Below are positions 6,291-62,499 of a DNA stretch of 62,499 bases, one piece after another. How positions within the stretch are numbered: position 1 is the first letter of the stretch; every line of letters starts with the position of its first letter. The translations under genes were made by a program, and so were the position numbers. Source of the stretch: an uncultured Candidatus Poseidoniales archaeon (lineage in GTDB: Archaea > Thermoplasmatota > Poseidoniia > Poseidoniales > Poseidoniaceae); assembly GCA_964637985.1 (NCBI GenBank), contig CAZWXR010000001.1, positions 1-62,499 of the forward strand, in the 5' to 3' direction. The notes below the pieces were generated by a model. That model saw nothing but the letters and a program-made list of their open reading frames with translations, was not told where the DNA came from and did not search any database.

Positions 6291-6354
6291 ACCGAATTTG
6301 AATCGACTTTTGAAAACAACCCTAAGTTGAATCGAATATGATGAAAATTAATCG

Positions 6355-7392: not shown

Positions 7393-7529
7393 CGTTGCTT
7401 CCCGATGTAAAGGCCTTGCGTGATGTCAATAAACAATTCCCTACGGAAAGATTGTATCTTCTCATAAATTTTACACGATTATTGATAAATTGAAGGAGAG
7501 TATTTGACTAAGATGTGCGAGGGATTTGT

Positions 7530-9104: not shown

Positions 9105-9108
9105 TAGT

Positions 9109-10800: not shown

Positions 10801-10806
10801 TTGAGA

Positions 10807-11478
10807 ATGTGCGGGCGTTTTGCACTGGCAAATCAATTAAGCAGTCTTGCAGATATAATCGAGGACCAACCCTCGACAGAATTCATTGATTCCATTGAAC
10901 CATCATGGAACATCGCTCCCAAGCAAAATGTTCCAACAGTGATGTTTGATTCAACTTCAAATCAAGTCACCATTGGCCTTGCTTCGTGGGGTTTTCGACC
11001 TTCATGGTCCAGTCCATCAAAAATTGAACCGATCAATGCTCAAATAGAAACCGCAGCATCAAAACCAATGTTTCGACAAGCCTGGGCAACCAAACGTTGT
11101 GCCGTTCCATTCGATGGGTGGTATGAATGGAAATCGACACCTCTAGGGAAACAGCCATTCTTTCTTCATGTTCAATCAAAAGAACCAGTGTACTTTGCAG
11201 GTCTTTGGGATACCTGGCATGGCGAAACGCAAAACGATGTGATCACATCAACCGTAATTTTGACAACCGAAGCTGTTCTATCTTTACAGGGTATTCATCA
11301 CAGAATGCCTGTCTTGATAAGCAAATCTCACCTTGATTCATGGCTCAAGTTTGGACAGGTTGAGCGTGATGATTCCATCGCCTTCAAATTTCATGCAGTA
11401 TCAAAAAAAGTGAATTCGGTACAAAACAATGGACTTGACCTCGTTGAGCGAATTGCAAGTTTAACAGATTACTGGTAA
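10807..11478 (+). CDS. SRAP-domain (YedK/HMCES-like) abasic-site processing protein
   Basis: Begins MCGRFAL, with the catalytic Cys2 directly after Met. Also has WNIAPKQ, INAQIETAASKPMFRQAW, CAVPFDGWYEW and GIHHRMPVLI. The track start at 10801 is TTG and the ATG is at 10807. Confidence 0.9.
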   Translation: MCGRFALANQLSSLADIIEDQPSTEFIDSIEPSWNIAPKQNVPTVMFDSTSNQVTIGLASWGFRPSWSSPSKIEPINAQIETAASKPMFRQAWATKRCAVPFDGWYEWKSTPLGKQPFFLHVQSKEPVYFAGLWDTWHGETQNDVITSTVILTTEAVLSLQGIHHRMPVLISKSHLDSWLKFGQVERDDSIAFKFHAVSKKVNSVQNNGLDLVERIASLTDYW

Positions 11479-11903
11479 GGTTTGTAGGAACCATCGGGAT
11501 TTTTCACATATGGTGTCGATTCATAGCCACCGCCTACTTTTTCTTTGTAGTGATAACCATCGGTGTGGTGCAGATATTTTGCTTCAATTTGGGGTGGAGG
11601 AGTCGGTTCGGGTTCGGGGGAGGCTTCGGGTACAACAATGTCAACCTGTTCTGGTTCGGCCGGCTTTCCCATGGCATTGACAACACCCTCGTAATGATCG
11701 CTTTGGTTTTCGGAGGCGACAACTTCGGTCGTACCACCACCAAAAAGTGCGAGGGCATCTTTGTATGCTTGGTCATCCACTCGATGCTGTGAATCTCGTG
11801 CAAACGGGTCTTCTCCTTTGCTGTACACGACCTTCTGAGGTTGTTCTTCAGGTAGTCGGTCAATAGTTTCCTTGGACTTCTTGAACGGCCAAATTGGTGC
11901 CAT
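11469..11903 (-). CDS. hypothetical soluble protein, Pro/Glu-rich centre and Tyr/Gly-rich C-terminus
   Basis: This ORF fills the gap between the SRAP gene and the 835-aa gene. ATG at 11903 with GGAG just upstream. No TM segment. Contains PEASPEPEPTPPPQ followed by DGYHYKEKVGGGYESTPYVKNPDGSYKPYQ. Confidence 0.5.
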   Translation of the reverse strand: MAPIWPFKKSKETIDRLPEEQPQKVVYSKGEDPFARDSQHRVDDQAYKDALALFGGGTTEVVASENQSDHYEGVVNAMGKPAEPEQVDIVVPEASPEPEPTPPPQIEAKYLHHTDGYHYKEKVGGGYESTPYVKNPDGSYKPYQ

Positions 11904-11945
11904 GCTCCTTTGGAGAGATAAGGATTACATCAAATCTCCCCAAGC

Positions 11946-23227: not shown

Positions 23228-25441
23228 ATGCAAGGAGAAAATCGATGGCTTCTCCTTTCAACAATGATGCTCCTCAGCCTCGTTACCGGCGTACAAAACA
23301 CTGCTGCACATTCAGTTGAAATTGACCATCTAACAGGCAATTCGATGCATGAAATCCAAGGAATAGAACAGGAAACGTACCAATTCTCACTTGAGATCAA
23401 CGAAGGCTTGAGCAACATTGTCGATGTATCATGCACTTCGTGCACCGTGAGCATACTTCTCAACGACGAGGAAACACATGGACAGCAGCAAGTCTTCGAA
23501 AGTGATGTGAATACAAGTGCAATGCTTACCATAGATTCCCATGAACGACAATTGATTATACTCAAAACTTTTCTTAGCGTAAGTCATCACGGGCTAACCA
23601 CACGACCATCGCCATCCGAAACCGTTGAGATGCAAAATATATCGCTCTGTGACATTCGTTCTTTCTGTTTTCAACATCATGAACAGTCGCTGCGAAATAT
23701 TCAATTTTTCAATCAACAAGAGGTGGAAATTCATGCTGGAAAAATAGCGGATGGGTTGGATGATTACATCGTATTTCAAGCTACAAAGGGAGCCACAGTT
23801 GAGTTGAATTGGCACCATTTGACTGGTGACATCACGACAACAGCCTATTTTCAACATGGCGGAAGTGAACTTCAATTAATTTCACCAAGGCTTATTCAAC
23901 CCATTCAATTGTTAAAGCAGTTCGGTATTGTATACAACACAATGTATCTTCAAATCCCGGATGATGGTCGAATTATTTTGAAATTCCAAGCCGAAAATCC
24001 AACTGACTATTACGCTCTTTCATTGGTGTCATACGAGAAGATGTCAAACGTCACAACCTCATTTGATGTTGAGGATTCAACGGCCTTTGTCGGTCATGGA
24101 ACACATCAAATTGCATTTGAATGGCCTGTGGCTCATTCAATACTTCTTACCAATGGGCCTCATCAAATTCAAATGAATATTACCTTTTTTGCAGGCGTTG
24201 AATTAAAAGATGAAGGTCAAGTCATTATGCCATACCAGCAAGTAAAAATTTACCCTTACCCGAACACAACGGCTGGGAAATTCAATATTTTTTCAAATCA
24301 GACATTCACGTTTGATGTCGAATTAGCAAACTTTGCTGATGCATCAAGCATGAGGGATGCACAAGGATACGTACCCTCCGGAAATCTTAGCCAATTATCT
24401 TCGAATTGGATTCTTCTCAATGTCACAGAAAATTACAATGCACAACTGACCTTATCAGTTTTTGATACAAGTGATACATATTTGTTTTACATCGATGGCT
24501 GGGAAGAATCAGTTCATTTCGTTGAATTCAAAATCGAGGGAACAATCGAAGGACTTGAAGTCCAACTTTGGGACATTAACCCAAGCACTCATGAGGAAAT
24601 ATTTTCAAGCACTGGGATAAAATCATCAACTGAAATTCGAATAGGCCAACAGGTTGGTCACGGCCACCATATTTTGCAAATACGACATCAAGACCCACTC
24701 AATGTCACACCAGCAGAATTTGGCACGGATACGCCTCCTCTTCTGTACACAATCACTTCGACGTACCAACTCATCGATGAAGGGGAAGAACCATGGTTCC
24801 CACCAGATGATGAGGCGATGGCTTGGGGTGAATTCGTTCGATGGCTGTTAGGATTTCTGTTGATTGTTCCTGCAATCTTCTTATTCATAGCAAAGAAAAG
24901 AAATGATCGCTTCACCACAGAAATTTTGTCAAAAAGGAATCGGCTCGATTGGCTAAAATCTCAACTTGATTCGGGTGAAGTTTCTTCGAGTGGGTCACGT
25001 AAAAATTTGCTTCGAAGTTTAGCAGCCTTGCAATCTGTTACATGGAAAGAAGGTACGAGTTCATGGGGTCCGCCGTCATTACAACACACAACAGAAGGTC
25101 TAGAATTCATGGTTTGGGAACTTGACAAGAGATTATCTACAGATGAAAATGCTTTGCCATATCTCATAGGCGTCTACGCTAAAGAAGGTTCTTGGGACCT
25201 TGCAGTTGTGAGAATCGAAGCACCTGAAGGTTCGCCTTTCAAAATTGTTCAATGTGCTCCAAAATTCCTCTTCCGAGGTGAGGAGGTGTTTATCGATACA
25301 CTTCTGCACGGCCAATTGACATATTTCCAAATTGATGTGCTTGGTTCATCGAAACGGGTTGAATTTGAATTGAATGGTAGACTAGACGGACAGCCATTTG
25401 CCGCAAAAATCCCTCATTCACTCTCGCTAGAGGAAGAATGA
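23228..25441 (+). CDS. bitopic membrane protein (737 aa) with ectodomain and an about 190-aa globular cytoplasmic domain
   Basis: Signal peptide WLLLSTMMLLSLVTGVQNTAA. Single TM helix WLLGFLLIVPAIFLFIA followed by KKRNDR (positive-inside). The C-terminal domain is not low-complexity and ends LSLEEE. Confidence 0.7.
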   Translation: MQGENRWLLLSTMMLLSLVTGVQNTAAHSVEIDHLTGNSMHEIQGIEQETYQFSLEINEGLSNIVDVSCTSCTVSILLNDEETHGQQQVFESDVNTSAMLTIDSHERQLIILKTFLSVSHHGLTTRPSPSETVEMQNISLCDIRSFCFQHHEQSLRNIQFFNQQEVEIHAGKIADGLDDYIVFQATKGATVELNWHHLTGDITTTAYFQHGGSELQLISPRLIQPIQLLKQFGIVYNTMYLQIPDDGRIILKFQAENPTDYYALSLVSYEKMSNVTTSFDVEDSTAFVGHGTHQIAFEWPVAHSILLTNGPHQIQMNITFFAGVELKDEGQVIMPYQQVKIYPYPNTTAGKFNIFSNQTFTFDVELANFADASSMRDAQGYVPSGNLSQLSSNWILLNVTENYNAQLTLSVFDTSDTYLFYIDGWEESVHFVEFKIEGTIEGLEVQLWDINPSTHEEIFSSTGIKSSTEIRIGQQVGHGHHILQIRHQDPLNVTPAEFGTDTPPLLYTITSTYQLIDEGEEPWFPPDDEAMAWGEFVRWLLGFLLIVPAIFLFIAKKRNDRFTTEILSKRNRLDWLKSQLDSGEVSSSGSRKNLLRSLAALQSVTWKEGTSSWGPPSLQHTTEGLEFMVWELDKRLSTDENALPYLIGVYAKEGSWDLAVVRIEAPEGSPFKIVQCAPKFLFRGEEVFIDTLLHGQLTYFQIDVLGSSKRVEFELNGRLDGQPFAAKIPHSLSLEEE

Positions 25442-26624: not shown

Positions 26625-27581
26625 CTACAAATCAAGACCGCAAGATTGACAAAATCGTTCACTCGATTGGTTCGAAGTACCACATCCGCGACAGTTGAGT
26701 CCCCCAATTGCCACGGGTTGTTGTTGCGATTGAGGTACTGAATTCATCATTGCCATGGATTCAATACTTTGGCTTTGAGTGACTTGTTGCTGATCCAAAT
26801 TTGCTAGTGGACTCTCGAGCAATTCCCCACTCGAAGATAAACTATCATCGATGCCACCTGTGTCACTGAAACTTGTTATTCGAATCGCTTCATCGTCTGG
26901 TTCTTGGAGTGACTTCAGAGGAGCCACAGGTCGTTGAGCTATGACTGGTTTTGATGATGCCTGAGCATGTAAGGCTGCACTTTTCTTTTGCTGTCGTTCT
27001 TGTTTTGAATCACGCCCAAACCATGAACCAACGAGGTCAAGAAATCGATCCATAGGCGAAGGTTGCCGCACTGCACCAATCGTCCCTATTTGCTGAGAAG
27101 AAGGATTTTGAGATGCTGAGGAGCCAAATCCAGTTGCTTGTCGGACAGTTCTTGATTCTGTTAGCATCGAAACTTCAACTATTTCCTCGCTATCCAATTC
27201 AATTTCTTGTGGCTCACTTGTTAACGACCCCACTTGACCCGCATATGATGTTGGTGTCGATAGTGTTTCATTTAGCGAAACCTCTCTATCCCACACGCCT
27301 TCTTCTTCCGCTTTATACACTTCTTTGATTTTCTTCATGGCTTTCGACCGATGATATTCATGATCTTTCACAACATTCAATTTTCGTCGAAGGACAAGAA
27401 AAATCACCAGACAAATTGAGTAATATAGAGCCAAACCTATCCAAGAATACTCAATCGTCGCTTTGAGAGGTGGCACACTCAAGTGAAACGAAATGAAGAT
27501 GATGAATGGTGACACACTGAGCAGAAGATTCGTCACGCCCTTTGCCATAACCCCACCCTTGTCATACCAACCATCAATCAT
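26625..27581 (-). CDS. membrane protein with two N-terminal TM helices, a disordered S/Q-rich region and a C-terminal zinc ribbon
   Basis: TM helices LLLSVSPFIIFISFHL and WIGLALYYSICLVIFLVL. Ends LNCRGCGTSNQSSERFCQSCGLDL. Confidence 0.6.
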   Translation of the reverse strand: MIDGWYDKGGVMAKGVTNLLLSVSPFIIFISFHLSVPPLKATIEYSWIGLALYYSICLVIFLVLRRKLNVVKDHEYHRSKAMKKIKEVYKAEEEGVWDREVSLNETLSTPTSYAGQVGSLTSEPQEIELDSEEIVEVSMLTESRTVRQATGFGSSASQNPSSQQIGTIGAVRQPSPMDRFLDLVGSWFGRDSKQERQQKKSAALHAQASSKPVIAQRPVAPLKSLQEPDDEAIRITSFSDTGGIDDSLSSSGELLESPLANLDQQQVTQSQSIESMAMMNSVPQSQQQPVAIGGLNCRGCGTSNQSSERFCQSCGLDL

Positions 27582-30291: not shown

Positions 30292-30636
30292 ATGAGCGAC
30301 CAAGACGATGAGCAAGAATTGGTTGTTCAATTTCCTACAAAGGAAAAAAAACCTCTCATCCATAGAATGGTTTCGACGATCAAAACCATTTTCCATGAAA
30401 TCACATTTGGCGTAGGGACTTGGGGTGCCATGAGACCAATGTTTACTGCCCTGTTGGCCGGCGTGCCATTCCTTTTCCTCGGACAACACTTCAACAAAGA
30501 GCACGGCAAGGCAAGGGATTGGACTCTTTTGCAAATTCCGCTTGCACTCACCGTAGTCCTTTGGGTTGGACTTTGGCTTTTCTCCATATTTGATGCATGG
30601 AAAACGGCGACAGGTGTTGTTGCGAATTCAAATTAA
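30292..30636 (+). CDS. small membrane protein (114 aa, two TM helices)
   Basis: Acidic N-terminus followed by MFTALLAGVPFLFLG and IPLALTVVLWVGLWLFSIF. Preferred over the overlapping minus-strand ORFs, which lack any features. Confidence 0.5.
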   Translation: MSDQDDEQELVVQFPTKEKKPLIHRMVSTIKTIFHEITFGVGTWGAMRPMFTALLAGVPFLFLGQHFNKEHGKARDWTLLQIPLALTVVLWVGLWLFSIFDAWKTATGVVANSN

Positions 30637-31427
30637 GGCTGCCATAGTTGGTCGGTTGGTTTGATTTTCTCATTCTTCATATCGCTCAGGTCTGCAAGGT
30701 CATCCGAATCAAATTCGTTGGGCAAATCACCAGTAATGAAATTCATGAGTGAGGTCGATTCGATAGCCCAATACATGACTGAATCTTCGTTGTTTGAATG
30801 ACCTGGATGGCTTGAATCTTCATGAGGTCTTGGGGATTGGTAAACGAGATTGACCAAACCTAGAAGATGACCAACCTCGTGCACAACAACGCTGTTCTCA
30901 ACATCCTCAGCGGAAGGTCTTCCAAAGAAACCCTCTGCTTCCTCGATGCTGTCTTTGAAAATGGCGATTGTTGAACCATCCACAGCTACACCTAAAACAG
31001 AATCATCGACATATGACCCTGATGGGAAAATCAGTTGCCAGTACAATGTTGAAGTGCTATGTGGGTGTTCTTCTTTCAATTTCCAGCCCTGTTCCCTTAC
31101 ATCGTCTGCACTCCAAGAATCGATTGAGAATGTTGACTCGATATAATTGAATGTGATGCCTGATGGCTTATCACAAACCTCCATAATTCTGTCTTCAAGC
31201 ATGGTTATACTCGATGTCTCCGGCCGATAACCTGATTCGAATACAATCTCAAATTCGAGACTTTTATGCTGATCGGCACGTAAGCAGGCCATCGTTAAAG
31301 AACCTGGAACTCCATGATTTTCTATGTTAAGAACCTCTTTGATTGAATCCGACAGACAACCTGATGTATTCATTGAGACGATGAAGAGAGACATCAAAAC
31401 AGCGGTTGATAGCCTCTTCATAGACAA
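30633..31427 (-). CDS. secreted/lipoprotein-like HEXXH zinc metalloprotease (metzincin-like)
   Basis: Signal peptide ending in a possible lipobox (IVSMNTSGC). VVHEVGHLLGL zinc-binding motif with downstream His residues and a candidate Met-turn (DSVMY). Confidence 0.7.
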   Translation of the reverse strand: MSMKRLSTAVLMSLFIVSMNTSGCLSDSIKEVLNIENHGVPGSLTMACLRADQHKSLEFEIVFESGYRPETSSITMLEDRIMEVCDKPSGITFNYIESTFSIDSWSADDVREQGWKLKEEHPHSTSTLYWQLIFPSGSYVDDSVLGVAVDGSTIAIFKDSIEEAEGFFGRPSAEDVENSVVVHEVGHLLGLVNLVYQSPRPHEDSSHPGHSNNEDSVMYWAIESTSLMNFITGDLPNEFDSDDLADLSDMKNEKIKPTDQLWQP

Positions 31428-43103: not shown

Positions 43104-43197
43104 AAACTCACCTTCGGCATGGTGCTACCTGCCGCTATCCAAAACTCCACGCGCTTACCTTATGAGGGTGATGGAACATTGTTCCGACACGACATCA

Positions 43198-43244
43198 ACA
43201 AAAATACATTGAATACGACAAAAATACATCGAAAATAGTATTTT
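43198..43244. promoter_or_regulatory. tandem 16-nt direct repeat (ACAAAAATACAT[T/C]GAA x2, 20-nt register) plus adjacent AAAATA-g-TATTTT palindrome in a divergent intergenic region
   Basis: Read directly: 43198-43213 acaaaaatacattgaa and 43218-43233 acaaaaatacatcgaa (15/16 identical). The palindrome lies at 43232-43244. The element sits between the divergent starts at 43103 (-) and 43303 (+). Confidence 0.6.
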
Positions 43245-43302
43245 TCCGATCTGCAACAGCGGTGTATTCAAGTTCCGTACGCGAATCGATACGAATGTTA
43301 GC

Positions 43303-44127
43303 ATGACGATGAGTATCACCCATCTCGGAACAGGAAGCAGTGGCAACTCCACATTGCTTGCTACCGAAGATACAAAATTGCTCATTGACCAGGGATTTAG
43401 CGGCAGAAAACTTACCCAACGATTATCCCAAATAGGATTGGAACCAACGGATATTGACGCCATCCTCATCACACACCATCATGGTGACCACGGGGGTGGT
43501 GCGAAATTGTGTCAAACTCGATGGGGCATTCAAATCTATGCAAATGAACGGACTGCACTTGAACTTGACCTTTTACCCGACCACACCACATATTTTGAAA
43601 ATCTAGAATTGCTCGAATTTGGCTCCGATATTCGAATTCTTCCGGTACCAGTACCACATGATGGAGCGGACAATGTAGCATTCATCGTTAGTTTCCAACA
43701 AGAACGTGCTGCAATCATAACAGATTTAGGCTCATGGACTGATGAATTGGTACAACATGTTCATGGATGTGAACACATTGCAGTCGAAGCGAACTATGAT
43801 TCAAAACGACTTCTTCGCGGCCCATACCATAGGAAATTGAAAGACCGAATAACAGGTCGAGGCGGGCACTTATCAAATGAACAAACAGGATCATTTCTCG
43901 CACAAGTTTGTACAGCATCAACCCGCAGCATCACACTGCTTCACTTGAGCGGCGAGAATAATCGGCCGCATCTCGCTGAATCAACAGTACTCTACCATAT
44001 TGACGAAATTTTTTCGGGAGATTTGAGAATATCCACTCAAGATGGGCCAGAATTTTCGACATACATCGGTCAGCAATCTGAAGAAGGGCAACAAAGCAAA
44101 ATCCATCGATTCAAGGTGAATGCATAA
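43303..44127 (+). CDS. MBL-fold metallo-hydrolase (YycJ/WalJ- or PhnP-like)
   Basis: ITHLGTGSSGNS, LLIDQG and the HxHxDH motif ILITHHHGDHGGG, with downstream His/Asp ligands. 274 aa. Confidence 0.85.
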   Translation: MTMSITHLGTGSSGNSTLLATEDTKLLIDQGFSGRKLTQRLSQIGLEPTDIDAILITHHHGDHGGGAKLCQTRWGIQIYANERTALELDLLPDHTTYFENLELLEFGSDIRILPVPVPHDGADNVAFIVSFQQERAAIITDLGSWTDELVQHVHGCEHIAVEANYDSKRLLRGPYHRKLKDRITGRGGHLSNEQTGSFLAQVCTASTRSITLLHLSGENNRPHLAESTVLYHIDEIFSGDLRISTQDGPEFSTYIGQQSEEGQQSKIHRFKVNA

Positions 44128-44151
44128 ATCCAACGAAGGATTGGCGAGATT

Positions 44152-45213
44152 ATGGAAGCCAAGAGAGGCAAAATATTCTCGGCTTCTTCATCCAGAGATG
44201 AGCATGGTGTAAGTGAAGTTCTCGGTGTTGTGATGCTTCTGGCGATGGTCATCACCATTATGGGAGGCGTCTGGGTTTTTCTCAACCCGTACATGAGTGA
44301 CTTTGAAGACAACACAAACTGGAAATCAGCCACTGGTATAACTGAACGAATCGACGATCGCATCAGTGTGGCAGGCAATTCGCCAAATGGAACCGGTTTC
44401 AAAAATTCAATGTCGCTGATTTCAACCTCCATACAAACCATGAAGGGCATAGAATATTGGACTTTGGCTGCTGATTTAACCACTCGAGATGTCGTCAAGG
44501 TCAAACACATGAATGATTCAGCAATTGAAGTGACATCAATCAATGAGCGAATTGTATCCATCGATATTCAAAACCACATCGAAACGTTATCGCTCGATGT
44601 CAATGACGGCGAAAACCGATATGTCATCAGCCACAATCTTTCTCGTCAAAAATGGTTCATGGTCACTGCTTATGATGCACAGGGACAGACACTCCACAGA
44701 CATGTCGATGTCATTCTTTCAGGATTAAAAGTCACCACGAGCCTCGGGATGGGTGACCATCAAATCGCCCTCATCAACAACGCTGTTATCGAGAAATTTC
44801 CAAATGACCCTTGGACCATTGCCTCAATGCCCACCTTGTCGTTCACGCACCTCGCAAATGGCGATGTGAGACTAGCCATCCTCCTTACAGATGCCCATTC
44901 AATTCGTTCATTTGGTGGTGCAGGGAAAACAAGCGTCGAATTTTTGTCTCTTGGCCCAATGAATTTATTTTCTGGACCGGCTTACAACATTCACTTCTCT
45001 GCTCACAGTGAACTCCACCCAGTCGTTAGTCCACAGTACCACGATAATTGGTTGCAGGACTATTATCTCCATCGCTCATCTGCCACATTGACAACATATG
45101 ACGGCTTAGCACCATTTGAGCGAGCGAGTGGTGCCGATGGTTTTACTGTGATGACGACGAGTCCAGTTGTACATTTTGAAGTTGACCTTCAACGAGTTGA
45201 GGTGAACACATGA
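44152..45213 (+). CDS. archaeal type IV pilin-like protein (class III signal peptide, DUF1628-like N-terminus), 353 aa
   Basis: N-terminus MEAKRGKIFSASSSRDEHG-VSEVLGVVMLLAMVITIMGGVWVFL: a short charged leader followed by the typical VSxVxGvvLlla hydrophobic helix. Confidence 0.75.
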   Translation: MEAKRGKIFSASSSRDEHGVSEVLGVVMLLAMVITIMGGVWVFLNPYMSDFEDNTNWKSATGITERIDDRISVAGNSPNGTGFKNSMSLISTSIQTMKGIEYWTLAADLTTRDVVKVKHMNDSAIEVTSINERIVSIDIQNHIETLSLDVNDGENRYVISHNLSRQKWFMVTAYDAQGQTLHRHVDVILSGLKVTTSLGMGDHQIALINNAVIEKFPNDPWTIASMPTLSFTHLANGDVRLAILLTDAHSIRSFGGAGKTSVEFLSLGPMNLFSGPAYNIHFSAHSELHPVVSPQYHDNWLQDYYLHRSSATLTTYDGLAPFERASGADGFTVMTTSPVVHFEVDLQRVEVNT

Positions 45214-47459
45214 AGACAACCAGCAGACTTTGCAGAGACGAGGATTCAGTTTCAGCTGCTGTTGCAACCGTCCTTCTCTTTGGTGGTGTTCTCTCAATTA
45301 TCGGCATGATGATGGTGTCCATGGTCCCTGTCATCGAGGAACTTGAAGGGGCAGTTGAACGACATGATATGTCAGCACAAATGGCACTTCTCGCACACAA
45401 AACATCACAACTCAGCGAGACTGGAATGCCAGGAGATTCCACATCAGCAGAATTGATTCCAGTCGATGGGAATCTCGTTTGGGATCGGCTTCGCGGTGGC
45501 ATGTGGTACTCTGCTACTTGGGGAGAAGACATGAGTTTGCGTGCAAAAAACGTTGTAGACTTTGATGACGAGTTCGAAATTCGCCACCCAGAAACCGAAA
45601 CTGCAGTGGTATGCACGACCGATTTACGGCTTGGCATCAACCGACCATATTATTACGATATACCAGAGCATACTGAAACACTTCTCATCACAGCAAAGCC
45701 AGGCATTGCATTACCCCTAGGTCCCATTGGAATCACAATGTTGGGCGATAACGGTTACGAATTTTCTAGTGAACTCCTCGTGGATGATGTTTTCTCAACC
45801 AATTTCATTGTTCCAGTTGAACATCTCACAATAAAATCAACGCATGAACTCAACATATTAGCCCTCGCTGGTGAAGAGGGTGCCACCTATATTCCTCCAA
45901 ATCAACCCGACGCCGCAAATAAACTGGGGCGTTCTTGGTCAATCCCATTACCAACTGGGCTTTCGAAAGTGTATGTAACAAGCAAAGATGCAAATGAAGT
46001 GTCGGTGATTTTGGGTGAACAATCCTCAACGTACTTTGGAATTCCTGATGAGATTGCACGAACGGGAACAAGTGTCGAAGTGAGTTTCAATCAATCGACT
46101 GAATCGGTTGCACATATCTTTACCAGTTCTCTTTCTCAGGTTGTTTTCCGATATGGAGAGACATCTGGTGAAGGACTTACATACATCCCCTCAACAACCG
46201 GTTCATACCATGGACAAGAGTTCATCCCTCCCAAAACAAATAGCACACTTCGATTATCGAATCCGGGAGACGCCGCATTGACTGTGACATGGCGAGGTGG
46301 GGGAATTACCGTTGCTGCGAATGACGTTGAAGATATTTCATGGCCCCCATCCACAACATACACTGCTCCTCTTATCCTAGAATCGGACGCACCATTCTCC
46401 GTCCTTTGGTCCTCATTCGATCAAAATCAACCCGTCGACCTTCGAAATGGATTAGTTCACCTCATTGCAAAGGACACTGGATTTTGGACCGGACATCACT
46501 TCAATTATACCTCAAGCCAGGATATTGGGCAAGAAATCGAAGCATCACTTCGTGGCTATAGAACTGAAATTTATTGGGAACAAGGTGGAGTGAATGGAAC
46601 GAGTATACTGATTCAAGATGGTACAACATCTAAACTATTTTCTCTGGCTTCAGAGTCATTGAATATTGAAGTCAACAATACACATCCTATCTCACTCCTA
46701 AGAGCAGCAGGCGATAGCGGTGCACTTCACATACCTCATTCTGGCACCGAGCGATGTGAATCCGTGGGAACGTTAGCGAGTGGATGGATTCCATTACAAC
46801 TTGCTTGGCAATCCATGGGTGGACGTAGTGATACAGATGTGGAAAATGCATGGATTGATGGTCGACACCCTTCAAGCGTTCAAATCGATGTTTTTGGAAC
46901 AATTGACAGAGATTTCAATGCAAACATCGGGACCATCTGGGCTTTCCACCTCTCACGCTTGTCGTACCAATTCAAAACCTCAGTTGAAGGTATGGAAGTA
47001 GCATACTCAGGAGGGGCTGTGATGACCAACCATCCTGAATTCAATCCGTACATTGTAGTCCCGCCATCCGACAGGGGTGGGCCAGGGCCACGATTTGCTG
47101 CAACTATTCCCGCCTTACATCCATCGTCGAACAGCGTCATTGGCGGAGGTAAACTCTCAATTGACATTGAGTTAAATTTGCGAACATCTCTCGCATCTAC
47201 AGATGCATATGAAATTCGAAGAGGTTGGAACGAGCCATATGGGGCTGCCATCGCAGAAAATGCTGGTGAGGGGCTTGGGGGAAGTGAAGACTGGACTGTA
47301 TATCCTGGAAGGCTAGACCTCCTCACAGACTATGTCGGTTGGGTTCCCGACCCGAGTTTCGGGACGAGTGAAACCGTATGGCATACAAATGGAGAAGTCA
47401 TCAAATTTAGCCTGCAACTGAGTGCTTTAGAAGTCACACTAAGGGAGGCAAACCGATGA
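45210..47459 (+). CDS. large type IV pilin-like protein, 749 aa
   Basis: ATGA start/stop overlap with the upstream gene, with GGTG 6 nt upstream. N-terminus MKTTSRLCRDEDS-VSAAVATVLLFGGVLSIIGMMMVSMV. Confidence 0.65.
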   Translation: MKTTSRLCRDEDSVSAAVATVLLFGGVLSIIGMMMVSMVPVIEELEGAVERHDMSAQMALLAHKTSQLSETGMPGDSTSAELIPVDGNLVWDRLRGGMWYSATWGEDMSLRAKNVVDFDDEFEIRHPETETAVVCTTDLRLGINRPYYYDIPEHTETLLITAKPGIALPLGPIGITMLGDNGYEFSSELLVDDVFSTNFIVPVEHLTIKSTHELNILALAGEEGATYIPPNQPDAANKLGRSWSIPLPTGLSKVYVTSKDANEVSVILGEQSSTYFGIPDEIARTGTSVEVSFNQSTESVAHIFTSSLSQVVFRYGETSGEGLTYIPSTTGSYHGQEFIPPKTNSTLRLSNPGDAALTVTWRGGGITVAANDVEDISWPPSTTYTAPLILESDAPFSVLWSSFDQNQPVDLRNGLVHLIAKDTGFWTGHHFNYTSSQDIGQEIEASLRGYRTEIYWEQGGVNGTSILIQDGTTSKLFSLASESLNIEVNNTHPISLLRAAGDSGALHIPHSGTERCESVGTLASGWIPLQLAWQSMGGRSDTDVENAWIDGRHPSSVQIDVFGTIDRDFNANIGTIWAFHLSRLSYQFKTSVEGMEVAYSGGAVMTNHPEFNPYIVVPPSDRGGPGPRFAATIPALHPSSNSVIGGGKLSIDIELNLRTSLASTDAYEIRRGWNEPYGAAIAENAGEGLGGSEDWTVYPGRLDLLTDYVGWVPDPSFGTSETVWHTNGEVIKFSLQLSALEVTLREANR

Positions 47460-47932
47460 ACGCACATTCAAATTTTACTCAAGATGAGTCAGGTGCAGCA
47501 ACAGAACTCGGCTATATCTTCACCTTTCTTCTCGGTGTACTCCTCATGACAATGTTCAGCATTTGGGCATGGGGCATCGAAACATCTACTCGAGAGCGTT
47601 GGAACGATGAAGCGATTATAGCCAATATGGACGATATCGTTGAAGCAGTTGAGCGTGCGAATGAAGCTAGCCGAATTGATAATTCAACATATGCCGAATG
47701 GGTTTCGTGGAGACCAACGGAAGCAGATGAATCATTGATGACACTTATTTTGGAAACAGATACAATTGAATTGGTCGATGAATCTGAAAGAGAAGGTTAC
47801 ACTGTGCATCACTCTGGAACAGGGAATGCAGAAAATAATGGCACGCTTGCGTTAGCAGGAATCACTACAATTTGGATTGTCCTCGAAGATGGCCAAATCT
47901 ATCTATCAGCAGATAGACCATACTTTTCCTAG
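47456..47932 (+). CDS. small type IV pilin-like protein, 158 aa
   Basis: ATGA overlap with the upstream gene, with GGGAGG about 8 nt upstream. N-terminus MNAHSNFTQDESG-AATELGYIFTFLLGVLLMTMFSIWAW. Confidence 0.65.
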   Translation: MNAHSNFTQDESGAATELGYIFTFLLGVLLMTMFSIWAWGIETSTRERWNDEAIIANMDDIVEAVERANEASRIDNSTYAEWVSWRPTEADESLMTLILETDTIELVDESEREGYTVHHSGTGNAENNGTLALAGITTIWIVLEDGQIYLSADRPYFS

Positions 47933-56255: not shown

Positions 56256-59200
56256 TCAGAATCGAGAGCTGGTGCGTCCACTTCGTACTGCTTTGAATCC
56301 TGCATAGATGACAAGACACATGAGTAAGAAGATGACAAGAGTGACCCAGATTGAGTTACCCTCTCCTGTACTGCCTGCATAGAAATCGACTGAGAAGTCG
56401 AAGTCTTCGACCTGAACATCGACATAGTCTGCATCTTCGCCGATGACATCAACGCGTACGTCGTAACGGTGATTGCCTGCTGTTGTTGCATTGAGCGTGA
56501 AGTCAGCAAATACAATCTCTTCAGCAGGTACTGAAATTGTTGTTTGGAGTTCCTCTCCTTCATCAGTTGTGAGATACACAATCACACTGCTCGCATCAAG
56601 CATTCCATAATTTTCAACAGGAATGCTCAGAACAGTTTCAACATCTGCATCTGCAGATTTGGAGATCAAACTTTGGTCAACTTTCAGCTTAATACGGGCT
56701 GCTTGAACTGTGACATCAACCGTTTGAGTCGTTACTGCTTCACCTTCGCTTGAAACAATGACAGAAAGTTCTTTTGTTCCATCTGTGAAATTATCTCCGG
56801 CAAGAATTGTAAATGACATTTGTCGTGAGTCATCTTTTGAGATGGTCACGGTTGTGAACATCGGAGTGACTGACCAACCTTCTGGAATATTATCTACAAC
56901 TTCAAGCGTAAATGTATCATCACCATTACCCAAATTTTCGATGGTGAATGACATTTGTCTTGATATTGATGGTGATAATCCAACGACCTCAGTTTCATCA
57001 ACGATATCAAAACCATAGACTTGTGGAACAAATACATTCAGAGAGATTTCACTTGTCTCAGCGAGTTGAGTTCTCATATTGAGAAGAATTCGGTGTCCTT
57101 CGTCGAGATGCCATGTTGTGTTTTGAGGTGGAAGGGTGATTCTTACAGAAACTGTTGATGATTGTGTCACACTTGTATCACTAGCGTTTTCACCGATACC
57201 AAGTTGGACTTGGAGTTCATCAACATATTCAGTTCCATTGAAAAATTCAACAATCCAATCGGTCGAATCCGGTGCAGCAATAACTGAACCTGTGAGGGTG
57301 AAGAGATCATTCACTTCAGTACCGTCATAATCAAGGTCGATGTCAAATGTAATTTGTTCGTATTCAGTTTCAGATGGAATTGCATCCATTCGTTGTGAAT
57401 CATCGACATCATAGTTTGCACCGACGACAGAGGTGTTCACAATTGTCATTGTTGTGTCTGAATTAATTCGACGGTTGTACTCAAGAGTGAGTGGTTGGGA
57501 GCCGCTTGTAGGCACCGTTCCAGCAGCACCACCGTTGTACTCCATTTCAAGTTCAAAGTCGTGTTGTATGGTGATGAATTCGGAATCCATTGAGACCGAT
57601 CCTGCTGGTGCAAGGAAGAAGATGGTTCCATTTGCTGGGGCGGTTTGAATAAATTCAACGCCATCTCCGAAGTCAAATTCAATTTCAACTTCCTCGGTAA
57701 TGAGGTCGTAGCCAACATCTTCACTACCAACATGGTGGGCATCACCTTGGATGTCAGTCCATGAAGTGCTAAGGAGAATATATCCTCCATTTCTCATTTC
57801 AAGGTCGAGTGATCCACCATTCGAAACTGTTGCATCGAGCAAACCTATGGCCACACCTCCACCATTTTCATCGAGGTTTTGTGAAGTAACATATACAACC
57901 CACTCACCAGGTTGTACTTCAGCATCCCATTCAAGGACTTCTCCGCTCATCGAACCAACGATTTCGATTGGATCACGGTCATACGTTGAAGTTGGATACA
58001 GCATGATTGTAGCACCGACATTATCTTCACCAACTAAATCAACGATAGTTCCACTAACTTGAACTGTGATTGCCTCAACTTCAATATCATGAGTTTCTGA
58101 AGCATTTTCAACCACGTAGCCTATGCTATCATTCGTAGTTTCGTAATATACGGTGCTGTATCCATCTTTTGAAACTGTAACATTGTACACATCTTGTATA
58201 GGAACAAAGAGACGCCATACTCCGAATTCATCTGTTTCAATGGTTTCATTGACCGAAAGTTCATCTGAACTCAAAATTGTAACATTCATTCCTTGAATTC
58301 CTTTTTGATTGTCAGAACGAATTTGCCAGTACACCTTACCACCGATTTGAACTTCTAAGTCGGCTTCTAATGTTCCAAGATCGAGATTAAACTCACCATC
58401 GTGGTCATCGGTATTGAATGGTGCATCTGAGGTGTTTAGCGTCCAATGCTTTGTCGATGTTGAATAGTTCAACTCAAGACTCCATTGCCCTGGCATGAGG
58501 AGTTCAGTCGTATACCCTGATTCATTGGTCTTTTCAAATGTTATTTGTCCAAGACCGTCTTGGCTGATTGCTTTGACTCGCTGTTCGGAGAGGTTGTTGA
58601 GTGTTAGACCCTCTTGAAGTTGGAAACTGACATTTACTCCCTGAACGGTTTGTAAACTCAACGATGAACGCAAACCAGCATCATCATTAATCGTTACAGG
58701 GCTTCTGAGAACCTCTGTAATCTCGCCTGAGGAATATGGTGCAACAATGAATAGCCAATCACCAGATGGAACGTATGCAGCAAATGTACCGTTCTCATCT
58801 GAAGCGATATTGAAATAATCATCTTTTTCTTCGTTGTACATCAAGAAACTATTCTCAATTCCATCACCAGTTGAGTTGGAAAGAGTTCCATTGACTCGAT
58901 ATGTTTCTTTGAACACAAGGTCGATGACATCATCTGGACCATTCAACCCTATATCGATGAGGTCGAAGAAGGAAAACGCTACCAAGTCGTAATCAGTTGC
59001 ATTTTCATCACCTGCAGAAGTTCTGTTGAGAACAACTTGATAACTTCCTGGAGTTAACGAAACAACAAGTTCGCCAACATCATCGTAATCATCTTCTGTG
59101 ATGTTTACTTGAGTTCCAACACCCATTGGTTGAAGGATGAAACTTGGTGAAATCATTGTTCCATTGGTGGAGTCAACATCAGCATTTGATGCCATGAATA

Positions 59201-62200
59201 CATTCAATGTCACTTCAATTTCCTCTGGATAAACATAGAATTCGAGGAACGAATTCTGCAAAGTTGTCGAAGTATTCACGATGACGCCCTCGATAGATGT
59301 GGCGTTGAGCAATTCATTTTCAAATTCGAAGTCATAAACGCCATCTGGCAACTGAGTGAAGAATCGACCTTCACTTGAAACAGTTGTATTCCAAGTTAGA
59401 CCTGTTTCATCAGTTGCGAACAGATTCTCTGATTCCCATCCAGGAATGGTGGAATCCCAAAATGTTGCATTATCATAGAGGTAGACGAAACCTTCGATGG
59501 TTGAGGTTGGTTCAAGGTAAATTGTTCCAAGGTCAATATCTTCATCACCACTAACTTCGAGCAACTCACCGTATGCCATCGCTCTGGTCAAAGAGAAAAT
59601 TGTAAAATGATAATCGTGACCACTAGGTACTCGGATTGAGAAATTACCTGAGTCGGACGAAGTCGTTGTACTAAACTCGAGGTCTCCTGAAACCATAGTG
59701 ATTGGCGTATCTTTCACTGTTTCCGTGTTAATGATGAGGAGATCAGGATTGTCTTGTGTTTCCAAATACCATTGATGATATTCATTGAGAGCTCCATTAT
59801 ACGAACGAAGAGAACCATTGAGGACCACAGAAATTGAATAAGCGAATTCTTCAGATAGTTCATCGTTCGGTTCGATGGTTATTTTCTCGTACAAAACCAT
59901 TGACTCGTCGAGATTATCGATAATTGTATATTCACCTGCAAGTAATTCGACATAGATCATTCCATCTTCATCCGACGTTGCTTCAATAGGCTTAGCAAAT
60001 CCAAGTCCATCATCAAAGATGAGTGTTCTGTTGTTTACATCGATGAGAGGTTCATTTGTTTCGGCATCGAGCGGAGAAACAAGTGGAAGTGTGAGGTGAC
60101 CTGTTGGTGGAACATTGAAACCAAGTGTAAGATTCTCTGATTCATCTGAAACAAATAATGTTTGGTTGAGGTCATACCAACCATCTCCATCGACGTCAAC
60201 TCTGTAATAATACTCACCAAAGGTGATAGGGCCATGTGCAAAAGAACCATTTTCGTCTGTGATGATCTCAATCAACGAATCCTCGCCGAGCACAACATCA
60301 ACAAATTCAATCGTTGCATTAGCGAGAGGATTGTTTTCAATATCGATGAGCGTATCACTGAAATGGGATGCTGGAATTGTCATATCAAGGTCATAACTAG
60401 GTGTTATTCCTACAACGACTGGTTCAGGGAGGAGAACTTCTTTCCCATTTTCCATCTGTGCAATCATATTGTATGTTCCTGGGAGGAGTCCAGTTTTGTA
60501 GAATGAACCCGGCTCAACCATCGGTCCAGAGAATGTACCGTTACCGATGAACAAACCAGTTCCGTTGAAAATGCCAGTTCCAAAGAAACTACCAATACCC
60601 TCAAACGTGACACCGTCTTCATATTCTTGGACAAATGTGGTGATTCCATCTGAGGTGAGCATACCCTTTCCAACAAATTCTCCATCGAAGAGATACTCTT
60701 GACTGCCTTCACCAAGTTGACAAATGGTTTGGTTTGCAGGCAATGCAAATTCAGTTGAATTTTCAATAGGCTCACATTGGCTCATATTTGTTGTATTTTC
60801 AAGCCATGATGCTTTAAACGTCCCTTTTCCATTCCAAGTTCCGTTGCCAAAGTACATCACTTTGTCCGTAATTTCTCGTGTATATGTTCCTACGAACTCC
60901 TTGACAAATGCAACGCCATCACTTTCAAAGGTTCCATTGTACATGAATTCAACTTCACCAGTTCCTTGAAGGATACGCGATTCTTCTGAAGTAAATGTAC
61001 CACTTGTTGTCGTCACAGTGTAATTATCAGTCATCGACCAAATATTTCGAAGAATGAAAGTGGTTTCTTCGACTGCTTCGCCCTCGAAACTTTCGTGGCC
61101 TGTCCACTTGATTGTCCCTGAAACACCACTTGAACCCACGCTAATATCAAGAGATTCTGTGATATCTGTCACTCTATTCGCTTGGTCACCAGTGATGTTC
61201 ATTTCAGCTTCTCCTAGCCATGTCATGTTTGAGACTTGACCCAAAATAGCTGTAATTTCATTCACAGTACGGTTTTCATTGGATTCTTGAAGGAGATCTT
61301 GGATTTTACTCACATATGATCCATCTCGTATGTTGTCTTGGTCGAAGACAGGGTTGTATGTTCCTGCAAATGCAGATACACGAATGCGTCCTGCTGGAGC
61401 AATGAATGAATAGCGACCCTCTTCATCAGCATCTACCGAACCAATTGGTATCCAATAAGTGTCTGCATCATCATCTTCGATACCTTCGCCTGAGAATGCA
61501 TCTCTTTCAACGAGCACACGTGCATTCGGGATACCAACACCATCGTCCTCGGTCACGACTTGTCCAGATAGTTCGCCACCTGGATAATATTTGAGAATCT
61601 TCACGAGCGTATTCGCATCTGCAAGACTCTTGGTTGAATCATTGCTATACCAATTTGCGAGAACGAAATGATTCATCATTGCACCCGGTAGAGGAACAGC
61701 CTGTTGCAGTATGCTTCCAGGGGAACCAGATTGACCGAAGTGTTGAGATGGCTGAGGATTTGATGAATCTGTATCCAATCCGAGTGAAGACGCACCATAT
61801 CCGACATATGTACGAGCAACCATTGTGTCGAAGAACGCTGGTTGATGGTCAATTCGAACGTCTTCAAGAGCAATCAAGTCGATATCTGCACCTGCTTGGT
61901 TGTTCAGGAAATCCTTCTTGACCGCTTCCTCATACTCTGCGGCAGTCATTTCGTCCTTGAACTCACCACGTACGGTTTCATAGGTTTCAGACATGAATGC
62001 TTGAATGTCTTGTCCTGAGAGAATTGTTGGTGCTCCAAAAATACCCATTGGTTGACCCGAATTGTATTGAGCATCAGCTGTATATCGGCCCGCACGTGGG
62101 TAAAGTCTGTTGTCGACGGCGAAGTAACGAATTTCGTGATTACGGTCTATTGTTTCACCTGGTCCTCCGTCGTAGTCTTGAACTGTGTAATATCCTTCCA

Positions 62201-62499
62201 TATTGATGATATCATTGTACAAATCGTGAATAGTCGCTGTAGGATGAGCCTCAAATACCGCATCGAGCAATTGAACTGTCAATGCTAATCGTGAATTCAA
62301 TCGGTGGATATTCGTAGAAACTGAGAGGTATTCCTCAACCAAGTCTGCAGTGTACCAATATTCACCAATGACGTAATGTGTCGTTTCTTTCACTGTATCT
62401 TGACCACTACGAATATTATTTGTAAAGGTGATATTTGCTTGACTCTGGTCAAGCCAGTCGCCGTTTGAACACTCTGTTCCAGAGGTATCTTCACAAAGG
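56256..62499 (-). CDS. giant surface protein (more than 2080 aa, 5' end beyond the window edge) with CarboxypepD_reg/prealbumin-like and CARDB-like repeats and a C-terminal TM anchor
   Basis: The track 'M' at 62393 is a GTG, and I translated the frame upstream to position 62499 without meeting a stop, so the gene is truncated by the window. There are at least 8 repeats of the G-x-V-x...D-x-x-G-x-[FY]-x-[FL]...G-x-Y type (DADEEGRYSFIAPAGRIRV, DENGSFAHGPITFGEYYYRV, DEDGMIYVELLAGEYTI, SEGRFFTQLPDGVYDFEF, DENGTFAAYVPSGDWLF). CARDB-like IENLGNGDDTF. The C-terminus has IWVTLVIFLLMCLVIYAGF followed by KAVRSGRTSSRF. Confidence 0.85.
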   Translation of the reverse strand, partial: LCEDTSGTECSNGDWLDQSQANITFTNNIRSGQDTVKETTHYVIGEYWYTADLVEEYLSVSTNIHRLNSRLALTVQLLDAVFEAHPTATIHDLYNDIINMEGYYTVQDYDGGPGETIDRNHEIRYFAVDNRLYPRAGRYTADAQYNSGQPMGIFGAPTILSGQDIQAFMSETYETVRGEFKDEMTAAEYEEAVKKDFLNNQAGADIDLIALEDVRIDHQPAFFDTMVARTYVGYGASSLGLDTDSSNPQPSQHFGQSGSPGSILQQAVPLPGAMMNHFVLANWYSNDSTKSLADANTLVKILKYYPGGELSGQVVTEDDGVGIPNARVLVERDAFSGEGIEDDDADTYWIPIGSVDADEEGRYSFIAPAGRIRVSAFAGTYNPVFDQDNIRDGSYVSKIQDLLQESNENRTVNEITAILGQVSNMTWLGEAEMNITGDQANRVTDITESLDISVGSSGVSGTIKWTGHESFEGEAVEETTFILRNIWSMTDNYTVTTTSGTFTSEESRILQGTGEVEFMYNGTFESDGVAFVKEFVGTYTREITDKVMYFGNGTWNGKGTFKASWLENTTNMSQCEPIENSTEFALPANQTICQLGEGSQEYLFDGEFVGKGMLTSDGITTFVQEYEDGVTFEGIGSFFGTGIFNGTGLFIGNGTFSGPMVEPGSFYKTGLLPGTYNMIAQMENGKEVLLPEPVVVGITPSYDLDMTIPASHFSDTLIDIENNPLANATIEFVDVVLGEDSLIEIITDENGSFAHGPITFGEYYYRVDVDGDGWYDLNQTLFVSDESENLTLGFNVPPTGHLTLPLVSPLDAETNEPLIDVNNRTLIFDDGLGFAKPIEATSDEDGMIYVELLAGEYTIIDNLDESMVLYEKITIEPNDELSEEFAYSISVVLNGSLRSYNGALNEYHQWYLETQDNPDLLIINTETVKDTPITMVSGDLEFSTTTSSDSGNFSIRVPSGHDYHFTIFSLTRAMAYGELLEVSGDEDIDLGTIYLEPTSTIEGFVYLYDNATFWDSTIPGWESENLFATDETGLTWNTTVSSEGRFFTQLPDGVYDFEFENELLNATSIEGVIVNTSTTLQNSFLEFYVYPEEIEVTLNVFMASNADVDSTNGTMISPSFILQPMGVGTQVNITEDDYDDVGELVVSLTPGSYQVVLNRTSAGDENATDYDLVAFSFFDLIDIGLNGPDDVIDLVFKETYRVNGTLSNSTGDGIENSFLMYNEEKDDYFNIASDENGTFAAYVPSGDWLFIVAPYSSGEITEVLRSPVTINDDAGLRSSLSLQTVQGVNVSFQLQEGLTLNNLSEQRVKAISQDGLGQITFEKTNESGYTTELLMPGQWSLELNYSTSTKHWTLNTSDAPFNTDDHDGEFNLDLGTLEADLEVQIGGKVYWQIRSDNQKGIQGMNVTILSSDELSVNETIETDEFGVWRLFVPIQDVYNVTVSKDGYSTVYYETTNDSIGYVVENASETHDIEVEAITVQVSGTIVDLVGEDNVGATIMLYPTSTYDRDPIEIVGSMSGEVLEWDAEVQPGEWVVYVTSQNLDENGGGVAIGLLDATVSNGGSLDLEMRNGGYILLSTSWTDIQGDAHHVGSEDVGYDLITEEVEIEFDFGDGVEFIQTAPANGTIFFLAPAGSVSMDSEFITIQHDFELEMEYNGGAAGTVPTSGSQPLTLEYNRRINSDTTMTIVNTSVVGANYDVDDSQRMDAIPSETEYEQITFDIDLDYDGTEVNDLFTLTGSVIAAPDSTDWIVEFFNGTEYVDELQVQLGIGENASDTSVTQSSTVSVRITLPPQNTTWHLDEGHRILLNMRTQLAETSEISLNVFVPQVYGFDIVDETEVVGLSPSISRQMSFTIENLGNGDDTFTLEVVDNIPEGWSVTPMFTTVTISKDDSRQMSFTILAGDNFTDGTKELSVIVSSEGEAVTTQTVDVTVQAARIKLKVDQSLISKSADADVETVLSIPVENYGMLDASSVIVYLTTDEGEELQTTISVPAEEIVFADFTLNATTAGNHRYDVRVDVIGEDADYVDVQVEDFDFSVDFYAGSTGEGNSIWVTLVIFLLMCLVIYAGFKAVRSGRTSSRF

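Follow-up and report, generated by a model that had tools for sequence, protein, structure and literature searches.

Pilin-like operons in other archaea and in bacteria

The closest analogue of the genes described here is found in haloarchaea, as multi-gene operons of pilin-like proteins of the DUF7287, DUF7288, DUF7261, DUF7266 and DUF7289 families. In the example on a Salinigranum marinum plasmid (NZ_CP100462.1, positions 4860-12009; locus L168), the six genes overlap start to stop, all six N-termini are of pilin type, the subunits range from small to very large, and no type IV filament (TFF) ATPase is listed within 9 kb. We compare with this operon a trio of adjoining genes, P2, P3 and P4, in a 62,499-nucleotide stretch of DNA from a Candidatus Poseidoniales (Marine Group II, MGII) archaeon (contig CAZWXR010000001.1, positions 1 to 62,499; "the window"). 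At roughly even odds, we interpret this locus as encoding three type IV pilin-like proteins, specific to the lineage, that form a heteromeric pilin-type complex. The six Salinigranum marinum genes encode, in order:

DUF7287 protein, 167 aa
DUF7288 protein, 214 aa
Protein with a weak DUF7261 match, 317 aa
DUF7266 protein with PKD and malectin domains, 681 aa
DUF7289 protein, 242 aa
DUF7289 protein with a VWA domain, 764 aa

The trio shares with this operon the start/stop overlaps, the pilin-type N-termini and the mixture of small and very large subunits. Alignment of the P2 family with a haloarchaeal DUF7289 protein (hhalign) covered 69 columns at 35% identity (E = 3.5e-5, probability 72%), running through the helix into a common AG.SP..TG motif and involving the N-terminal part only. 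The differences are also clear. The trio has three genes, not six, its likeness is limited to the leader and N-terminal helix, its scores are below Pfam cut-offs, and its ectodomains hold no recognisable PKD, VWA or other domains. It belongs to another phylum-level lineage, and is flanked by a metallo-beta-lactamase (MBL)-fold hydrolase gene upstream and a STAND-TPR gene downstream, whereas the haloarchaeal operon has no MBL gene. An operon of small and very large pilin-like genes away from an ATPase is therefore a recurrent archaeal arrangement and not a peculiarity of the window. An earlier, sequence-only reading of this DNA had pointed to the lack of assembly genes in view, a feature that is less remarkable because archaeal pilin genes often stand alone (Makarova 2016, a census of archaeal type IV pili), the six-gene analogue also lacks a nearby ATPase, and all Poseidoniaceae have an archaellum locus elsewhere, 90% of them with FlaK. 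A literature search returned no paper on pilins in MGII, nor on the DUF726x-728x families.

Archaeal type IV pilins with a Pilin_N domain (PF07790/DUF1628), such as Haloferax/Natrinema PilA (PDB 8gi2), resemble the trio in having a long N-terminal helix followed by a beta domain. The leader motifs are also alike, the P2 consensus being ...RxDERA/VSEVLGVVMLLAMVI and that of Natrinema PilA2 ...DEERA/VSPVIGVILMVAITV (slash, end of the leader). The trio differs from these pilins in its sub-threshold hidden Markov model (HMM) scores, in the lack of a significant fold match and in the size of P2 and P3, which are 2-5 times as large as structural pilins. In bacteria, minor-pilin or tip complexes such as GspI-J-K and PilVWX are made of different pilin-fold proteins whose N-terminal helices assemble, and they prime or cap the filament and mediate adhesion. 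PilB of Streptococcus sanguinis is presented as a modular pilin with a grafted functional module (PMC8179133). These bacterial cases offer a works-like analogy by architecture only, namely several pilin-type proteins encoded together; their sets are encoded with or near the machinery, and the analogy does not rest on sequence or fold homology with the trio.

The trio locus in the window

The trio and its immediate neighbours are arranged as follows:

43303-44127, plus strand: MBL-fold metallo-hydrolase gene, 274 aa, Pfam Lactamase_B, the conserved upstream neighbour of the trio
44128..44151, plus strand: MBL-P2 spacer, 24 nt
44152-45213, plus strand: P2, pilin-like, 353 aa
45210-47459, plus strand: P3, "modular" pilin-like, 749 aa
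47456-47932, plus strand: P4, of canonical pilin size, 158 aa
47929..50448, minus strand: convergent winged helix-turn-helix (wHTH)-STAND-TPR gene, 839 aa

The sequence-only reading had described the first four genes as a tight operon, and the coordinates and lengths that it gave for them agree with the list of open reading frames (ORFs) of the window. The 24-nt gap between the MBL gene and P2 is likewise as it claimed, and both ATGA start/stop junctions are present, with GAGGTG and GGGAGG upstream at Shine-Dalgarno (SD) distance. It was also right that two of the proteins, P2 and P3, are much bigger than structural pilins.

Pilin-like N-termini of P2, P3 and P4

P2, P3 and P4 each possess exactly one hydrophobic segment, which is N-terminal and lies behind a short polar leader. 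This corresponds to the form of a class III leader, in which a short polar or charged stretch ending in G or A is followed by about 20 hydrophobic residues. The predicted leaders are:

P2, residues 1-19, nt 44152-44208: class III leader ...RDEHG/VSEVLGVVMLLAMVITIMGGVW, followed by a beta-rich ectodomain
P3, residues 1-13, nt 45210-45248: leader ...RDEDS/VSAAVATVLLFGGVL
P4, residues 1-13, nt 47456-47494: leader ...QDESG/AATELGYIFTFLLGVLL

The comparison drew on 84 loci from genomes or assemblies, 80 from metagenomes and three distant members looked up individually. At position -1, directly ahead of the hydrophobic stretch, the residue is A or G in all 147 P2 orthologues, in 151 of 156 P3 orthologues (S in the other five) and in all 146 P4 orthologues. 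It is followed by an invariant VSE(V/I)xG in P2, VSAA(V/I)A in P3 and AATE(L/I)GY in P4, in the Marine Group IIa (MGIIa)-like and IIb (MGIIb)-like groups alike. Conservation is highest in the leader and helix, which have a mean column identity of 0.81–0.93 compared with 0.59–0.71 for the rest, as would be expected for helices that pack specifically.

Matches to pilin-family HMMs are widespread among the orthologues. All 38 P2 orthologues searched matched DUF7289 at the N-terminus and 26 of the 38 matched Pilin_N at E < 0.01 (best 9.7e-5), in every case below the gathering score; P2 of the window reached 19.5 bits against Pilin_N (PF07790), for which the cut-off is 25.2. No Pilin_N match was found for P3 or P4. 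N-terminal DUF7266 matches were present in 10 of 33 P4 orthologues, and N-terminal DUF7289 matches in many P3 orthologues. The DUF7289 model (PF23960) has 238 positions and a gathering score of 27 bits, and the window proteins stayed under it, P2 with 20.1 bits over positions 2-43 and P3 with 20.5 bits over positions 3-71. A P2 profile searched against the PDB reached seven sequences, three of which were archaeal pilins (8gi2, 8fj5 and 9myg) aligned at the cleavage motif; the top match was the Natrinema pilin PilA2 (E = 0.31), and with E-values of 0.3–10 this ranking is only suggestive. When the P2 N-terminus was searched against 72,556 plasmids (tblastn), four records were matched, all haloarchaeal, three of them annotated as "type IV pilin N-terminal domain-containing". 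Within the trio, P2 and P3 share their first 46 columns only (E = 5e-5), and the comparison of P4 with P2 was not significant. None of the three gave an Arch_flagellin (PF01917) signal.

The single N-terminal hydrophobic segment, the leaders of the orthologues and the HMM matches thus uphold the type IV pilin-like nature proposed for P2, P3 and P4. Membership in the broad class of class III signal peptide or pilin-like proteins is well supported and, in our judgement, probable; membership in any specific Pfam family is not supported.

Translational coupling across the order

The 4-nt start/stop overlap between P2 and P3 is kept in about 140 of 155 orthologous loci, as ATGA, GTGA or TTGA, and that between P3 and P4 in 134 of 156. 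SD-like motifs were present upstream in 93 of 106 loci for the P2/P3 junction and in 74 of 90 for P3/P4. Because the overlaps and SD motifs are conserved, P2-P3-P4 is an order-wide translationally coupled unit and not a chance arrangement; the sequence-only reading had inferred the coupling for the window. The arrangement fits what may be the co-ordinated synthesis of complex partners. At the other end, the P4 stop overlaps the end of the convergent 839-aa gene by 4 nt, tail to tail.

The fourth gene of the proposed operon is a different case. The three-gene unit stands; a tight operon of four genes is more than the comparison bears out, given a variable spacer and a hairpin in many lineages. 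The MBL-P2 spacer ranges from 0 to about 400 nt across loci, and 61 of 151 spacers contain a GC-rich hairpin with a perfect stem of 6 bp or more, compared with 3% of coding control windows of the same size. Hairpin stems differ by lineage (CACCTCA/TGAGGTG, CACCCCCC/GGGGGGGTG and ATCGCC/GGCGAT) in a way that looks compensatory. The hairpin could act as a terminator, mark a processing site or sequester an SD; it lies about 90–110 nt before the VSEV codon in, for example, L057, L066, L100, L167, L116 and L089, and several stems pair an anti-SD-like TCACCTC with GAGGTGA. The spacer of the window itself has no hairpin. A conserved element, AAGGTGAATGCATAAAT (44114-44130), spans the MBL stop codon in the window; elsewhere it forms the SD and P2 start codon, with the hairpin before it. 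Operon membership of the MBL gene is uncertain because the surrounding block is equally conserved, the enzyme is cytoplasmic, and a hairpin or a spacer of 160–400 nt intervenes in many lineages; co-transcription may occur in the lineage of the window.

Predicted structures

The AlphaFold2 models of P3 and P4 both have a "lollipop" architecture, in which a long N-terminal helix carries a beta-rich domain. In P4 (mean predicted local distance difference test score, pLDDT, 83.8) a helix of residues 6-71 precedes a seven-stranded beta domain. In P3 the helix comprises residues 11-70, and residues 77-580 are modelled as all-beta, in beta-sandwich or jelly-roll domains, at pLDDT 80–93. Residues 580-749 of P3 are Gly/Pro-rich (e.g. 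GGAVVTNHPEF...PPSDRGGPGPRFAATIP) and the most conserved in sequence, yet have a pLDDT below 50; these C-terminal 170 residues may fold only against a partner.

Distribution and synteny

The nearest named relatives of the window P3 come from Poseidonia sp., and all P3 homologues come from Candidatus Poseidoniales. Of the GTDB species, each represented by one genome, 201 contained a P3 relative. When 1.84 billion representative proteins were searched exhaustively with a profile, there were 133 matches, about 13 of full length and the rest fragments, all of Poseidoniales type, and no homologue outside that order. The trio occurs in both Poseidoniaceae and Thalassarchaeaceae; the most divergent P3 branches, at 30–36% identity to the window, bear source names such as "Candidatus Thalassarchaeaceae archaeon" (MGIIb). 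In every source the trio proteins are labelled "hypothetical". The trio appears to be single-copy and universal, not patchy as adhesins often are.

Among the more than 160 loci examined, gene order is identical in every one that extends far enough. The conserved block consists of:

Minus strand, one side: surface proteins of 1788 aa and 1913 aa (the latter a TSP3-repeat protein)
Plus strand: MBL gene, P2, P3, P4
Minus strand, other side: STAND-TPR gene, beta-helix protein (about 1500 aa), S8 peptidase
End of the block: giant STT3 (AglB)-domain protein, about 3200 aa

The neighbours are better conserved than the pilin-like genes, with 52–70% identity for the MBL protein and 50–70% for the STAND protein compared with 30–55% for P2 and P3. 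The MBL gene lies upstream of P2 in every locus reaching that far. An apparent loss of this gene in the most divergent locus, L166, was rejected as a gene-calling artefact in a genome of 66% GC, where tblastn finds the MBL protein at 58% identity. The linkage between the MBL gene and the pilin-like genes, to which the sequence-only reading had attached significance as unusual, is thus conserved, and a missing linkage, which that reading had named as grounds for refutation, was not observed. Because the whole 20-kb block is equally conserved, the linkage by itself says little about function and is much less striking than at first sight.

Two further observations concern the sources of these loci. 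L165 and L166 represent a divergent lineage of 66% GC (44–51% in the others) that keeps the whole block, one member being on a 3.0-Mb contig, which is above the size of typical MGII genomes; their MBL-P2 spacers measure 160–400 nt and contain CCGTTCAGACCCTCGCCCC-type repeats, and the automatic call had placed an antisense ORF where the MBL gene lies. Contig NZEQ01000036.1 (L021) is titled "Verrucomicrobiales bacterium isolate ARS100" yet carries a typical Poseidoniales block, with eight genes 51–69% identical to those of the window, and is likely mis-binned or mislabelled.

Filament machinery in the window and in the order

When every large ORF of the window was scanned with Pfam, housekeeping genes, giant surface proteins and S8 proteases were detected, but no T2SSE/FlaI/PilB, T2SSF/FlaJ/PilC or A24 peptidase. 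The absence of assembly genes, already remarked on in the sequence-only reading for the window, holds more widely, as no TFF ATPase, platform or peptidase gene lies within 10 kb of the trio in the more than 160 related loci.

According to published surveys, every genus of Poseidoniaceae but only a minority of Thalassarchaeaceae has an archaellum locus (FlaB/G/H/I/J), which lacks chemotaxis genes; they propose that the archaellum-like locus of Poseidoniaceae serves adhesion. In a pangenome table, MGIIa and MGIIb genomes differ in the frequency of FlaK (90% vs 16%), FlaB (86% vs 26%) and FlaH (86% vs 29%); the Rinke supplements hold no FlaK data. Because it is Poseidonia-like, the organism of the window very probably has FlaK, FlaI and FlaJ elsewhere in its genome. 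The trio is distributed more widely than the archaellum. Either MGIIb has an unrecognised peptidase or machinery, or the trio needs none. That A/G at -1 is strict among the MGIIb-like orthologues too favours an unrecognised peptidase or machinery.

The MBL-fold hydrolase

The MBL protein matched Lactamase_B with 62.6 bits (cut-off 22.7, 6e-17) and Lactamase_B_2 with 59.6 bits (cut-off 27, 4e-16). It carries an HxHxDH motif, as HHHGDH at residues 58-63, invariant in 24 orthologues. No signal peptide, transmembrane or hydrophobic segment was detected in the protein, which is cytoplasmic on that ground. Searches against the PDB and NCBIfam gave generic MBL matches only and reached no curated model; a partial match to PhnP was sub-threshold, and matches to RNase Z, beta-CASP and Apyc1 models were all far below cut-off. 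We take the protein to resemble YycJ/PhnP-type (COG1235) enzymes, on account of N-terminal GTGSxGN and C-terminal GGHLSN motifs. Like those phosphodiesterases and nucleases it is soluble, about 270 aa long and equipped with the HxHxDH motif; it differs in reaching no curated model. In contrast to ComEC-type proteins it contains MBL domains only, with no Competence domain or channel. The hydrolase is probably a conserved neighbour and not a mechanistic part of the complex.

Intergenic elements and other genes of the window

Two conserved DNA elements lie in the divergent intergenic region between the genes for the 1913-aa surface protein and the MBL protein:

43157..43190, no strand assigned: element conserved at nucleotide level, YTTATGAGGRTGATGGARCRATGTTCSKACA
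43258-43283, about 20–45 nt before the MBL ATG: second conserved element, GCGGTGTATTCAAGTTCCGTACGCG

In the first, a TATA-like CTTATGAGG precedes GTGATGGAACATTGTTCCGACA, and the latter includes the palindrome GGAACA-T-TGTTCC. Both are kept at the nucleotide level where proteins are only about 50% identical. Each is a candidate promoter or operator, on which the adjacent STAND-TPR regulator perhaps acts. The same region contains, at 43197-43229, a direct repeat of ACAAAAATACAT, twice, 21 nt apart, which is specific to the window and not conserved in relatives.

The convergent 839-aa protein is predicted to combine an N-terminal winged helix, a STAND/AAA_16 NTPase and TPR repeats, which would fit the architecture of MalT-like regulators. 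TPR_12 was above the Pfam cut-off (2.7e-22, 79 bits), and AAA_16 (2.3e-7, 31.9 bits vs a cut-off of 32.6) and HTH_Crp_2 (9e-4, 19.6 vs 27) were below it. Its gene occupies the same position in all loci, at 50–97% identity, and the protein is a candidate regulator of the block.

Elsewhere in the window, the last large ORF (56256-62393, minus strand, 2045 aa) has a CarboxypepD_reg domain and is probably the C-terminal part of the protein of about 3200 aa, which leaves the window; its orthologues carry the STT3 (AglB oligosaccharyltransferase) domain, an unusual giant fusion that is found order-wide. A 264-aa lipoprotein-like ORF (30633-31427, minus strand) has an HEVGHLLG zinc-metalloprotease motif and no Pfam match. 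On the minus strand, 17407-19431 and 26625-27581 encode unannotated membrane or surface proteins of 674 and 318 aa whose cytoplasmic ends carry zinc-ribbon-like CxxC...CxxC motifs, and further ORFs of 700–835 aa (e.g. 11946-14453 and 23228-25441) have no family match. The window contained no tRNAs and no Rfam match. A sigma-70 promoter and terminator scan of it gave results not above shuffled expectation, with a model that is not applicable to archaea.

A possible heteromeric pilin-type complex and its alternatives

In the interpretation that we favour (probability about 0.5, and the same for the heteromer of P2, P3 and P4 as such), the three proteins are made by coupled translation from their overlapping reading frames, and a FlaK/PibD-type peptidase encoded elsewhere would cleave after A/G. 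The three mature N-terminal helices would then pack into a heteromeric pilin-type complex, perhaps resembling a minor-pilin or tip complex that primes or caps a type IV filament, or a short pseudopilus. In Poseidoniaceae, archaellum-type FlaI/FlaJ machinery could mount it, and its beta-sandwich modules would be exposed on the cell surface, where they would serve in adhesion or bind a ligand. Of these functions we propose adhesion only tentatively.

Several points weigh against a pilin-type complex. Every pilin-family HMM score is below its curated cut-off and covers only the N-terminal 40–70 residues. At -2, in place of the usual K/R, P3 has E/D throughout and P2 of the window has H; R occurs at this position in 78 of 110 MGIIa-like and 16 of 37 MGIIb-like P2 orthologues, and the residue is variable in P4. 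Acidic -2 residues are presumably tolerated by the FlaFind pattern. A Foldseek search with the P4 model against the PDB had a best E of 0.17 and no pilin among its matches, and P3 gave only weak jelly-roll matches (TM-score at most 0.13) and no solved pilin or archaellin. Canonical machinery may be absent from many carriers, namely the Thalassarchaeaceae with little FlaK, FlaB or FlaH. Finally, we infer all of heteromer formation, cleavage, surface display and adhesion.

The second proposal of the sequence-only reading, a non-filament surface complex that makes use of pilin-type N-termini, remains a live rival, if in our view a somewhat unlikely one. The N-termini would be uncleaved or otherwise processed signal-anchor helices of a machinery-independent complex, holding P2-P3-P4 in the membrane as a fixed part of the Poseidoniales envelope. 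Its partners would be other products of the block, namely the giant surface proteins, the S8 protease and the giant protein fused to AglB. It would explain why the trio sits inside an order-wide block of envelope genes (1788-aa, 1913-aa TSP3-repeat and 1477-aa beta-helix proteins, S8 peptidase and STT3 fusion) with no TFF gene in any of the loci, why it occurs in Thalassarchaeaceae, where FlaK, FlaB and FlaH are found in only 16–29% of genomes, and why it is apparently single-copy and universal, unlike the often patchy adhesins. In each of the three proteins, however, the strict A/G at -1 and the invariance of residues +1 to +6 look like a peptidase recognition site and not a generic anchor, and the KEGG-based absence of FlaK from incomplete metagenome-assembled genomes (MAGs) is a weak argument, with other A24 peptidases and divergent TFF ATPases not having been searched for. 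A bolder variant is unlikely: the trio would be a universal Poseidoniales envelope component without filament ATPase, platform or FlaK, that is, an exapted membrane-anchored heterotrimer, as would apply to the many Thalassarchaeaceae without archaellum genes. Such an ATPase-independent heterotrimer would possibly organise or anchor the giant surface proteins encoded beside it, and its control might fall to the STAND-TPR regulator, acting at the conserved intergenic element.

Alternatively, P2-P4 could belong to the archaellum of Marine Group II or to an adhesion filament as accessory or minor subunits, incorporated into it or priming it. All Poseidoniaceae genera carry FlaB/G/H/I/J, the lineage of the window is Poseidonia-like and a common peptidase is likely. 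We nevertheless consider this reading improbable, as the trio never adjoins fla genes in the loci examined, occurs in Thalassarchaeaceae that mostly have no fla locus, and shows no Arch_flagellin signal. The sequence-only reading had also raised a pilus-linked system for uptake or processing of nucleic acids, in which the MBL protein would act as a nuclease on DNA caught by a P2-P4 pseudopilus. The MBL gene is indeed always adjacent, some MBL-fold enzymes are nucleases, and the matches to RNase Z, beta-CASP and Apyc1, far below cut-off, are at its N-terminus. The protein is soluble and generic, however, with no transmembrane or channel domain, and Pfam scans of the window ORFs found no ComEC "Competence" domain, ComEA-like receptor, DNA translocase or ATPase. 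The adjacency is also unspecific in a 20-kb block of equal synteny, a hairpin or long spacer precedes P2 in many lineages, and the haloarchaeal analogue does without an MBL gene. We therefore regard the DNA-uptake reading as unsupported and highly improbable.

Significance for Poseidoniales

Poseidoniales are the most abundant archaea of the surface ocean and are uncultured. Their envelope and attachment structures are known from gene lists only, and of type IV filament systems these discuss none but the archaellum locus. The trio is a previously unremarked candidate surface or adhesion structure, present also in a family mostly without archaella. It extends multi-pilin operons of the DUF7266/DUF7289 type from haloarchaea to a second major lineage, and if the trio does function independently of an assembly ATPase, the pilin fold would have been put to a new use. 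In practical terms the gain is moderate, and lies in the better annotation of several hundred MAGs.

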